Part shown: piece by piece, positions 6,307 to 48,540 of the stretch
Position numbering within the stretch: position 1 is the stretch's first letter
How the letters are laid out: every line of letters starts with the position of its first letter
Assembly (NCBI GenBank): GCA_965113315.1
Contig: OZ220365.1
Length of the DNA: 64,000 nucleotides
Direction: 5' to 3' (one strand)
From: Podarcis vaucheri
Lineage: Eukaryota
The notes under the pieces: model-generated
What the model was told of the DNA's origin: nothing
What the model saw: only the letters and a program-made list of their open reading frames with translations
The model's database searches: none
Program-made: the position numbers and the translations under genes

Positions 6307-6551
6307 GGAGCCAGTGTGGTGTAGTGGTTAAGAGTGGTGGACTCGTAATCTGGTGAACTGGGTTCGATTCCCTGCTCCTCCACATGCAGCTGCTGGGTGA
6401 CCTTGGGCCAGTCACACTTCTCTTAGCCCCACTCACCTTACAGAGCGTTTGTTGTGGGGGAGGAAGGGAAAGGAGGATGTTAGCCGCTTTGAGACTCCTT
6501 AGGGTAGTGATAAAGCGGGATATCAAATCCAAACTCCTCTTCTTCTTCTTC
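6307..6551 (+). mobile_element. Squam3-like tRNA-derived SINE, near full length, inserted in an older palindromic repeat
   Basis: A box TGGTGTAGTGG, B box GGTTCGATTCC, MIR-like core, (CTT)n tail. Confidence 0.88.
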
Positions 6552-7849
6552 CTAAAAACTCTCAGCATCCTTAACAACAGTTCCCAGGATTCTTTGGAGG
6601 AAACCATGACTGTTTAAAGTGGTGGGATACTGCTTTAAAAGCATGGAGTGAATGGGATCTAAGACCAATATGGTGCCAGGCTGCTTCCTCCCACACCATG
6701 GCTCAGTTGAAATTCTCCTACCGAGCTCCTGTAATGATGCCAAACACCTTGAGGGCACCGAAAAGTGGGGCAAAAAAAATGCAATAAATAAACATCATCT
6801 AGCATTTCAGCCTCTTGTTATGGAAAATATGGTTGGTACCTAACAATATGTTTCTCTTTGAGGTACTAGCCAGCCCTGTTCAATTAGTCTATTATGAAGC
6901 AGTGCTTCTAGGAAAAGCTGCTGCCTACTTACTGGAAATAAACCCCACTGAGAAAGAAGCCCTGAATAATAACTGCTGTGTTACTCTTTTGCAAATCCAG
7001 ATGCAATTATAGCAGTGCCAGGCAAAACTTTTGGACCAAAGTGCACAAGGGTAATCACACATGCGTGCGCACACACACACACACTCCTTTTCAGCAACTT
7101 ATTTTCCTTCAGCAATGTAAGCTTGCATTGCAAGTCGTCTTAGATTAGCCGTTGAACATCTGTCCATTAAAGCATTAGCCAGCTTCATCAGCCAGCGAGG
7201 ACATTACACTACACACATCTATACAGAAGGAGATTCCAAGAGCTATAAATAACTTACATTCGCCTACTTGATTAAGTTCTGTAATCAGTTATTTCAATAT
7301 AACAACACACCGCTTCCATCCAATTCTTTTCTCCCTTGTCAACAGCTTATATACACACACACGATATCTGCAGCCTTGTAGAATTATAAAAGCAGAAACA
7401 CAGCCTTGAAAATACCTCTTTTGGGGTTGCTAGTGCATGAAGCACTCTGGCCAGCAGCTCACCTCTGCTCTTCACCCCTGTTCCAGCTCAGTTATCCTTT
7501 ATGCCCACTCATTAAGTTGTGTAGGCTTTTCTGGAGCAGATGTAGTGTCCAAACGGCCTTAGATTTTACACAGGCTTTTCAAATAAATAAATAAAAACCT
7601 AGCCAGCTAAGGCAATCCAAGATCATGAAGCATGCCAAAAAAGAAAAGAGAAAAGCACTGCTTTCAGATGCAGAGAGAAAAAGGGAAGGAGGGAGGGGAG
7701 GGCGGAGGGAGCAGGAGATCAGAAGCCCTGCCTGTAAACCAAAAGAAAGGAGATAATAAAACAGAGCTACTTCAGACCTGCTCTTCAGAAGAGTTATTCA
7801 TAGCCTCCCATGTGAAATGTGCACGTCTTCTTTTGTTTCTCAGTCATGC

Positions 7850-9672: not shown

Positions 9673-9844
9673 TACAGAAAGCTGCCTTGTGCAGTCAGTG
9701 CCTTGGACTGTCTAGCTTAGTATTTTCCACACTGACTGGCAGCTGTTCTCCAGGAGCTGTTTTCAGACCAACTGGAGGAACCAGGGATTGAACCTGGGAC
9801 CTTCTGCATGCAGAGCAGATGCTCTGCCACTGAGCCACGCCCCT
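9673..9844 (-). mobile_element. tRNA-Ala-derived SINE (Squam2/Anolis SINE2-like)
   Basis: Minus strand GGGGCGTGGCTCAGTGGCAGAGC...GGTTCAATCCC followed by SINE body ctgccagtcagtgt...aaggcagctt. Confidence 0.85.
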
Positions 9845-31240: not shown

Positions 31241-31583
31241 CAGTGGTGCCCCGCAAGACGAATGCCTCACAAGACGGAAAACCCGCTAGACGAAAGGGTT
31301 TTCCGTTTTTGAGCTGCTTCACAAGACGATTTTCCCTATGGGCTTGCTTTGCAAGACGAAAACGTCTTGCAAGTGTTCCGATTTTTTTTCACTCCCCCCC
31401 TTTTCTAAGCCGCTAAGCCGCTAATAGCCTTTTAGCCGCTAATCCGCTAATCCTTTAATAGCCGCTAAACCGCTAATAGCGCTAATCCGCTAAGCCGCTA
31501 ATAGGGTTGCTTCGCAAGACGAAAAAACCGCTAGACGAAGAGACTCGAGGAACGGATTAATTTCGTCTTGCGAGGCACCACTG
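31241..31583. mobile_element. Tigger/pogo-type MITE with internal minisatellite
   Basis: TA-CAGTGGTGCCCCGCAAGACGAA...TTCGTCTTGCGAGGCACCACTG-TA; (AANCCGCT)n at 31405-31504. Confidence 0.92.
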
Positions 31584-42298: not shown

Positions 42299-42408
42299 GA
42301 TAGCAGCAAAGTATACACAACACATATTTCCTATTTAGAAATTTATAATGAGTGTGGTTATGATCTGCTGGACCCACGACATGAAGCCTCCAAACTAGAA
42401 GATTTGCC
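42299..42408 (+). CDS. KIF6: KIF6 exon 5 (DSSKVYTTHISYLEIYNECGYDLLDPRHEASKLEDLP)
   Basis: Long pyrimidine tract then ttcag|, donor CC|gtgagt; SYLEIYNE kinesin motif. Confidence 0.97.
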
Positions 42409-44200: not shown

Positions 44201-44690
44201 ATGCTGTTTCCTGTCATTCTTGAATTAGGGCCAGTCTTTAAGTGGAAGAAAGGAAATAAAACCAAAGATAAAGGGGGAAATGAAAGGATTTATTCTGAGG
44301 GTGGGGAAAACCATCACCACATTGCCTATGAAATGTTTCATGGGCCTGTCTCAAGGTGCAAATATTAACTGCAGGGTTGCACTGGGGTTTTTTTGGTAGT
44401 TCTGATATGAGCACCTGGGAAATTTCTTTTCGCTGAGAGACACAACCTGAGGGTTGCTTTAATTGAGAGTCCTTCATTGTGGGGGGTTGGACTCGATGAC
44501 CCTTGTGTCCCTTCCAGCTCTAAGATTCTATGATTCTATGTTCAGGGGAAAAAACATAAATACAGGCTATCTGTGCATTTATTTATTCACAAAATACACT
44601 ATGGATTATTTAAAAGGGCTGCAATGCCCTAAATGCCGACATTAAGCTTTACTTAAATCTTGTGTTTTTATTTTATTGTATTGTATTGTA

Positions 44691-44870
44691 GAGCCAGTGT
44701 GGTGTAGTGCTTAAGAGCAGTGGAGTCTCTCAGCCTCACTCACCTCACAGAGTGTTTGTTGTGGGGGAGGAAGGGAAAAGAGATTGGTAGCCGCTTTGAG
44801 GCTCCTTAGGGTAATGATAAAGCGGGATATCAAATCCTAACTCCTCCTCCTCCTCCTCCTCCTCTTCTTC
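44691..44870 (+). mobile_element. Squam3-like SINE, internally deleted, abutting KIF6 exon 6
   Basis: Aligns to 6307-6551 but lacks the B-box region; (CTC)n(TTC)n tail runs into TAG|exon 6. Confidence 0.92.
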
Positions 44871-44873
44871 TAG

Positions 44874-45003
44874 AAAGGTGACAATAATGGAAGATCCTGA
44901 TCAGAACATTCATCTGAAACATCTCTCTTTGCAGCAAGCAACCAATGAGGAGGAAGCACTGAACCTTCTTTTCTTAGGAGACACTAACAGGATGATTGCA
45001 GAG
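44874..45003 (+). CDS. KIF6: KIF6 exon 6 (KVTIMEDPDQNIHLKHLSLQQATNEEEALNLLFLGDTNRMIAE)
   Basis: Acceptor ttcttctag| (SINE-derived tract), donor GAG|gtgaga, 130 nt; only this acceptor keeps frame with exon 5. Confidence 0.96.
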
Positions 45004-45169
45004 GTGAGAATCTTTGACTGTAAACAGTTCAATTACCCTCTTGTTGAACTCAAAAGACTTAATATCTTTATTTCTTCTCTTTTGTAAGTCATTTAACACA
45101 AGACTTCAAGTAATTTACAATCAACTTTAGAAACTTTTCAAATTCCATCAAATGCACAGGTCAAGAGGA

Positions 45170-47264: not shown

Positions 47265-48540
47265 GTTTAATGTAAAGTTTTGCACCTAGTTAGGCAAAAT
47301 AAGATGCACAAACATAGAATGGGTGGCACAAAACTTGACAACGGTACAGGATGACCACAAGTGAAACGTGAATGCAGTTCAACAGAATCACAAGAAATAA
47401 CATCCAGATCATAATAAATAATGGTACCAGTCTATTCTGGTTTGGTCAGAACTCTCCTGGAGTACTGTATCAAGATCTGAGCACTGCAGTTAAAAAAAGA
47501 CACTAACAAACTGGAACATGTCGCAAGAAGGGTGAGGGGTCTGAAGATCATGCCCTATGAAGAACAGTTGAAGGAGTTGGGCGTGTTTAGCTTGGAGAAG
47601 AGATACTAGCCATAGTCAAATATTTGAAAGGCTGTCTGCTACATAAATGGCAGAAGAAATTAGTTTTCTCTTGCTCCAGATCGTAGAATGCAAACTAACA
47701 GTTTCACATTGGGAAAATGGAATGACAATGGCATGGATTGCCTTGGTAGGTGATGGGCTCCCTTGCATTGGTTTCTTTTTTAAAAAAAACAAAACAGAGG
47801 TTGCATTGGTTTGTTTTTTTTAAATAGATGGCTGGATGGTCACCTATCAGGGATGCTACAGCAGTGGATTTCCTGCATAGCTGTCAAGTGTCCCTTATTT
47901 GAAGGGACAGTCCCTTATTGCAGTGCCATGTCCCGCTGCTGTCCCTTATTGATGGATGTCCCTTAAATGTCCCTTAAATGATGTCCCTTAAATTTCAAAG
48001 GAAGCAGCTCCTCTCCCTCCCTCCCTGCAGGCCAGGGAGGAGGGAGGCTCCAACTGTGTTGCTTGGCTGTGTTTCTCACCCAATAAGAAGTCTAAGAATG
48101 ACTGGGGGGTGGAGCTTGCATGCCTTGTGTGTGGCTAGTTAATGCAAGCTGAGGGGTTTTTTGAATGCTGGACGCCATTTTGTTGCACGTGCTGCTGCAA
48201 ACTTTGCAGTGCACAGCTAGGCCGGGGAGCCATCTTAAGTTGAGGCTGCATAGGCCTTGTGGTGCATGTGATTCAGATTCTATTCAGTTGAACCTCTGGT
48301 TACAAAGTGTTCTCGAAGCTAACAGCATGAATTTGACCAGACTGCAGGAGGACAGAAAGACTGGAGTGCCTGGAACAGGTGAGGCTGCAGGTCCCTTATT
48401 TTGGCTGCTGGTCCCTTATTTTCAAGGCTGCTGGTCCCTTATTTTCAAATCTGTAAGTTGACAGCTATGATTTCCTGCATTGTCAGAAGGTTGATTATAG
48501 ATGACCTCTGGTGTACCTTCCAAATCTATGATTCTATTTC
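47265..48540 (+). mobile_element. CR1 ORF2 3' remnant interrupted by hAT element
   Basis: ctggagtactgt...aaactggaac...tttagcttggagaagag...; resumes after TSD to atgattctat tail. Confidence 0.8.
47876..48469. mobile_element. Non-autonomous hAT with GTCCCTTA subterminal repeats
   Basis: Perfect 12-bp TIR CATAGCTGTCAA; perfect TSD ATTTCCTG at 47868-47875 and 48470-48477. Confidence 0.93.

Follow-up and report, generated by a model that had tools for sequence, protein, structure and literature searches.

A Squam3B SINE at the acceptor of KIF6 exon 6 in Podarcis vaucheri and its probable use as a 3′ splice signal

KIF6 exon 6 and the SINE in front of it

The window analyzed here, a stretch of 64,000 nt from Podarcis vaucheri without any N, contains exons 1–10 of a lacertid KIF6; in tblastn searches the best identity was to records from Podarcis muralis, with slightly lower values for P. 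lilfordi, P. raffonei, Lacerta, and Zootoca. Features lie on the plus strand unless stated otherwise, and a slash within a sequence motif marks an exon boundary. Exon 5 (42299–42408), placed by tblastn of lacertid KIF6, ends in phase 2 at CC/GTGAGT with the donor after 42408, and is followed in phase 2 by exon 6 (44874–45003), which encodes part of the kinesin motor domain in 130 nt. The 43-residue peptide of exon 6 was found in protein searches to be identical in KIF6 of Podarcis, Zootoca, and Lacerta and in many squamate KIF6 proteins, and in PDB its codons match the motor domain of KIF9. The acceptor AG at 44872–44873, likely the original host AG, is the only stop-free site that yields the annotated LPKVT junction; among 21 candidate acceptors between 44692 and 44878, the reading frame stayed free of stops only at 44874, the annotated junction, and at a weak AAG at 44823. 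Of 29 loci inspected, drawn from 80 metagenome hits, 28 have an AG at this intron position and in this phase. Judged by its intron position, which is common to distant animal and protist-like loci, exon 6 is an ancient coding exon. No squamate was identified among the 80 metagenome loci, where only one locus (L001) was vertebrate-like. All 11 lacertid KIF6 records inspected, which are gene models rather than junction reads and do not distinguish SINE carriers, read LEDLPKVTIME without an insert, and SINE sequence as an insert in KIF6 mRNA was found in none of these 11 models, in which rare isoforms would be invisible. Elsewhere in the window, a tRNA-Ala(TGC) was predicted by ARAGORN and Rfam (49.4 bits) on the minus strand at 9773–9844, upstream of KIF6, and may be a real gene or a SINE-like copy. 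Short imperfect tandem arrays occupy intronic positions 47889–48448 (periods 11–23) and 31405–31504 (periods 8–26).

An earlier note, made from the DNA alone, had described a Squam3-like SINE directly in front of exon 6. Matched to the published consensus and to a sister copy in the window (6308–6553), which served as a local control, the element at 44690–44871 is by alignment a sense, internally deleted copy of the lacertid SINE Squam3B. Squam3B reaches 16,000–92,000 copies per lacertid genome and carries a (CTT)n tail (PMC7983390); its consensus starts with GAGAGCCAG and ends with GATATCAAATCCAAACTCTTCTT (PMC7983390, supplements 1 and 2). The exon 6 copy and the sister align at 89% in two pieces with a 76-nt gap between them. 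The first piece (44690–44724; 89% to sister positions 6308–6344) is the tRNA-derived head with part of the A-box, and begins like both the consensus and the sister. The second (44725–44840; 89% to the sister) holds the 3′ body and the L2-derived end, matched by eye to the lacertid Squam3B consensus rows, the B-type body to the Squam3PmB row. The element thus resembles Squam3B of lacertids and geckos in its head, its B-type body, its L2-derived end GCGGGATATCAAATCC, its lacertid host, and its tail, where (CTC)8 and TTC units represent the (CTT)n type (PMC7983390, Table 1). Unlike the Squam3B described there, it has its B-box and CORE deleted, reads CCTAAC for CCAAAC, and has a tail that has drifted to (CTC)n.

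The deletion junction lies at 44724/44725, as placed by the alignments, paralogous contigs, and a scan for donors. The 76 nt missing relative to the sister include the B-box-like GGGTTCGATTCCC, a CORE fragment, and two GT sites that resemble donors, which bears out the loss of the Pol III B-box region reported in the earlier note, and of the diagnostic 11-nt insertion of Squam3B only a 3′ remnant is left. Without CORE, B-box, and the length of ~238 nt, the element is classed as a deleted derivative and not as an intact member. The deletion is not the norm of the family, because paralogous contigs (157 in sequencing run X5 and 61 in run X13) carry on past 44724 into CORE sequence. Counted by eye, the copy differs from the Podarcis consensus at about 10 of about 153 nt (~6.5%), which suggests an old, retained copy rather than a brand-new insertion; in the public contigs, its bases at 44779 and 44787 differ from 94–100% of the paralogous depth. 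Around the site of the B-diagnostic insertion, ~9 nt are missing from the sister copy (by eye), which has no target duplication. An 18-nt motif of the SINE matched 8 viral and 31 prokaryotic sequences, and among the 40 matches listed none of 119 loci aligned to the SINE over at least 24 nt.

Predicted splice signals in the 3′ end of the SINE

The SINE tail (44841–44871) is the predicted polypyrimidine tract of exon 6. It consists of (CTC)8 at 44841–44864, as called by TRF, and TTC units thereafter, and forms a run of 31 pure pyrimidines adjoining the AG, so that a (CTC)n(TTC)n tail indeed directly precedes TAG/exon 6. Its start coincides with the tail start of the consensus, and it extends to the AG. 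At the eight other KIF6 acceptors in the window, the pyrimidine run measures 3–10 nt, and among all nine only that of exon 6 is fully pyrimidine from −25 to −3. The AG-free zone of exon 6 (49 nt) is likewise the longest of the nine (others 15–39 nt). The site accordingly displays the YAG (as TAG), pyrimidine tract, and AG-free zone of a U2-type 3′ splice site, and in sequence also the yUnAy motif at −18 to −44, as CTAAC with its A at −34. All 180 nt upstream of the exon 6 AG are SINE, and a branch point and tract at normal distance must therefore be SINE-derived; if 44873 is the splice site, the tail must be the pyrimidine tract of the exon. A distant ancestral branch point serving the AG at 44873 was considered and rejected, as 19 AGs lie in between.

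With a T fraction of 0.41, the tail is C-rich, and C-rich pyrimidine tracts bind U2AF more weakly. In the predicted RNA fold, the tail pairs with a purine-rich segment of the same SINE, GGGGGAGGAAGGG, with a mean unpaired value of 0.23. The fold of the exon 6 SINE was no stronger than that of shuffled sequences (z −1.06), compared with 0.36 for the upstream site and −2.29 for the sister. A purine-rich segment complementary to its own tail appears to belong to Squam3B (44760–44871 in the exon 6 copy), and the hairpin is predicted in both copies.

The predicted branch point is CTAAC at 44837–44841 (A44840, −34), the only yTnAy between −15 and −50. The coordinates of the earlier comparison, CCTAAC at 44836–44841 against CCAAAC at 6529–6534 of the sister, are correct, and the motif owes its form to T44838 where the consensus has A. 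That reading of T44838 as a departure would have failed if CCTAAC were the subfamily consensus; the published Squam3B consensus reads CCAAAC (PMC7983390), and CCTAAC as the consensus was rejected for Squam3B in general. The per-species rows of supplement 1 break off short of this position, so that some lacertids may have a sub-subfamily with T at 44838. A weaker TnA candidate (44830–44832; A44832, −42) is already in the consensus. A yTnAy near an acceptor is neither rare nor required: it occurs between −18 and −44 at 41.5% of 20,000 random window positions, and in the other KIF6 acceptors at four of eight in that interval and at six of eight between −15 and −50. Starting from the consensus-like sequence of the sister, two of 66 single changes create yTnAy, which corresponds to a chance of 2–7% at 5–11% divergence, and the gain of CTAAC is on this count suggestive, if post hoc. 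T44838 need not have been selected, since the consensus has the weak TnA at −42 and yUnAy is found in only four of the eight other acceptors. Selection on T44838 or on the deletion is possible and unproven, and we place it on the doubtful side.

The deletion removed the donor-like sites CTG/GTGAAC and TGG/GTGACC, which match the donor consensus at 6/9 and 5/9 positions (real donors 6–8/9) and could have marked off an exon within the SINE, starting from the likely displaced acceptor described below. A donor-like AGG/GTAATG (44808–44816) has arisen through G>A at 44814 (6/9 against 5/9 in the sister), with A44840 following after 30 nt and the AG of exon 6 after 63 nt. Together, this site and the upstream AG would delimit a stop-containing exon of 119 nt (44692–44810), likely mutually exclusive with exon 6. 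These donor scores are crude and permit no conclusion on donor loss versus gain.

The probable displaced acceptor and competing explanations

Upstream of the SINE lies an acceptor-like stretch with its AG at 44690–44691, as the earlier note had stated, and it still looks like a full acceptor. This likely displaced ancestral acceptor (44648–44691) consists of TTTAC (A44651, −41), a T-rich tract with (TATTG)4.4, and TGT-AG; the T/pyrimidine fraction of 0.68 and TTTAC at −41 resemble those of other KIF6 acceptors, and TRF identified the tandem repeat at 44669–44690. Further upstream, a fragment at ~44460–44545 ends in (GATTCTAT)n at 44519–44540, 150 nt from the SINE. We take this fragment to resemble the 3′ end of a CR1 LINE. 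Translated in frame, the flank reads ...LYCR. Eight of 139 short proteins fitted the pattern of sauropsid-like genomic read-through ORFs, of which six read C-R-K (TGYAG/A), including the one with squamate-type KHL, and two read H-R-K. Locus L001, 83% identical to exon 6, reads CATGTAG/A. The agreement of ...LYCR with C-R-K in six of the eight ORFs and with CATGTAG/A of L001 lends modest and indirect support to the flank being the ancestral exon 6 acceptor. Use of the upstream AG would, as had been claimed, add 182 nt and shift the frame; counting from exon 5, codon 41 would then be a stop.

TAGA flanks the SINE on both sides, as the earlier note had observed, and its value as a sign of target duplication is weak. 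The left AGA is fully explained as SINE head, because the Squam3B consensus begins GAGAGCCAG; TAGA was rejected as proof of duplication on the ground that the consensus head GAGAGCC itself supplies AGA, which makes it non-diagnostic. The target-site duplication may amount to 1 nt and microhomology only, and the upstream AG may itself be SINE head. Under either reading of this AG, host or SINE head, the reconstructed empty site is TGTAG/AAAG.

We consider it probable that the SINE landed at the ancestral acceptor, its 3′ end now being the working 3′ splice signal of exon 6. The earlier proposal of displaced and replaced signals stands in so far as the flank fits an ancestral acceptor and the tail must be the tract if exon 6 is spliced at 44873; its TAGA argument is weak. 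Squam3B would very probably have inserted between the T and the AG of a site reading TGTAG/A, leaving the host AG with the exon and pushing the original signal ~180 bases upstream, and the (CTC/TTC)n tail would have become the polypyrimidine tract. The branch would in all likelihood form inside the SINE, and quite likely mainly at A44840. We expect with high confidence that, through exon definition over the 130 nt of exon 6, the near AG is preferred to the displaced site, use of which would give a 312-nt exon with a stop, a likely target of NMD. Squam3B differs from SINEs that end in poly(A) in carrying a pyrimidine tail and a weak TnA, which probably made the insertion survivable from the first; T44838 would later have improved the branch site. 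Since the consensus already provides the tract and the weak TnA at −42, the SINE was possibly tolerated from the start. The probable replacement of the exon 6 splice signals by the SINE is apparently harmless. The upstream site is still fully equipped and could compete with the near AG.

Two other accounts of the locus appear improbable to much the same degree. The host may have had its own CT tract, with the SINE landing just upstream of it by microhomology between tail and target and the upstream acceptor being merely a (TATTG)n microsatellite joined to an AG from the SINE. Elements mobilized by L2 may land in repeats resembling their own tails. The consensus head GAGAGCC would explain the upstream AG(A), the flank at 44669–44690 is a tandem repeat by TRF, and target duplications are rare in Squam3 (PMC7983390). 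Against this, the entire 31-nt run is in 3-nt register with the Squam3B tail, and orthologous acceptors are T-rich and end in TGYAG, as does the upstream flank. Even with a host tract, the branch point must be SINE-derived. The second account is a leaky, mildly harmful allele comparable to merle in dogs, in which many transcripts use the displaced acceptor, skip exon 6, or include the 119-nt SINE exon (44692–44810, donor GTAATG). The intact upstream site, the new donor-like site scoring 6/9, and the predicted pairing of the tail within the SINE are consistent with it, as are dog insertions near acceptors that lead to skipping or cryptic use (PMC3976383, PMC7349775), whereas the ~6.5% divergence from the consensus (by eye) argues for long retention, the exon 6 peptide is unchanged, and the normal junction is kept in lacertid gene models.

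In public contigs, 19 of 24 listed runs contain exon 6 at 13 of 13 words; they stem from three organisms (A, B, and C). Four runs (X5, X13, X19, and X9) were compared over 44545–45150, leaving out the simple repeats at both SINE junctions and position 44838. No joints were found in these four runs over this interval, in contigs, which drop rare isoforms. X5 (organism A) showed three differences in intron 6 and X13 (organism C) nine over 185 nt, while contig 32 of X9 (organism B, RNA by guess) covers 44878–45003 with no differences and its match ends at the donor. Exon 6 had no cover in X19, nor the upstream flank in any of the four, and such holes are no evidence. Two deep DNA runs had no contig over the flank at 44545–44691, although intron 6 is covered at 98% identity in X5; this may be a filter artifact or a real difference. 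The exon-bearing contigs break off 35 nt (X5) and 31 nt (X13) before 44878, in weak agreement with a repeat, of whichever kind, adjoining the exon. No lacertid read-through ORF with the SINE tail or the empty flank was present among 263 proteins (best 120 listed per search). That a foreign SINE was joined in at two simple repeats during assembly is barely credible, for although each junction falls in a simple repeat and neither is bridged by a public contig, the copy has private substitutions and a deletion that is not that of the family, the window has no N, the junctions fall exactly at the SINE start and tail end, and the X5 and X13 contig ends speak weakly for a repeat in this place, as a TATTG repeat would do likewise.

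Relation to known insertions and meaning for lacertid splice sites

Several insertions offer a comparison with the proposed replacement of the exon 6 signals by the SINE. In merle dogs, SINEC_Cf lies at the boundary of PMEL intron 10 and exon 11 (PMC7349775; PMC13756887). Both are tRNA-derived SINEs inserted, in KIF6 probably, into the acceptor of a coding exon, with a tail that acts, or would act, as pyrimidine tract and is a repeat of variable length (PMC7349775). The merle element is antisense, and its poly(T), well away from the host AG, serves a cryptic AG within the element, with exonization and a phenotype, and it is flanked by a 15-bp duplication, compared with TAGA on both sides in KIF6, of which AGA is also SINE head (PMC7349775). 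In KIF6, by contrast, the SINE is sense, its tail adjoins the host AG, and it would serve the original exon. The dog FAM161A and HCRTR2 insertions near acceptors push the branch point away and result in exon skipping or disease (PMC3976383); they share with KIF6 a SINE between branch region and AG, with signals displaced, in KIF6 probably, by >180 nt, and differ in that the replacement signals in KIF6 would arrive with the element. Core 3′ splice signals from a retroposon are also known from pseudoexons, where AluY in CEP290 and L1 in GPR143 provide branch point and tract (PMC7951965), those being new or aberrant exons and KIF6 exon 6 an ancient coding one. In human and mouse, transposable elements are under-represented at <20 bp from acceptors and were judged very likely harmful there (PMC3088655); the KIF6 SINE is of the same class, at 0 bp, and seemingly retained. 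A parvoviral element in a bat KIF6 intron (PMC7474932) is unrelated. By analogy, the KIF6 SINE looks like a tolerated mirror case of the harmful dog insertions. No splicing role for Squam3B is reported in the accessible part of PMC7983390, and in a search that covered subscription literature thinly we found no earlier account of a sense SINE whose tail serves an exon already in place, nor of the KIF6 locus.

A wider reading, which we hold to be unlikely, is that Squam3B is self-neutralizing when it lands in sense at an acceptor, as it brings its own tract and stands one change from a branch consensus. Were this so, lacertid genomes would hold tens of ancient exons whose 3′ signals have been swapped for a SINE tail, KIF6 would have been tuned by selection, with T44838 making the branch point and the deletion removing donor-like sites of a poison exon, and tail length would be a merle-like dial on splicing.

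The KIF6 case leads to a genome-wide prediction, namely that sense but not antisense Squam3B would be enriched directly before acceptors, with an excess of CCTAAC. By an order-of-magnitude estimate with assumed values for acceptor number and genome size, 5–150 landings at acceptors per lacertid genome would have occurred before selection. KIF6 exon 6 would offer a natural competition between two acceptors 182 nt apart, and the SINE a presence/absence marker for phylogeny. SINEs <20 bp from an acceptor have been described mostly as harmful or as depleted (PMC3088655, PMC3976383, PMC7349775). A retained copy whose tail, with a single changed base, stands in for the core 3′ signals of an ancient coding exon would open a path to wholesale turnover in splice signals.
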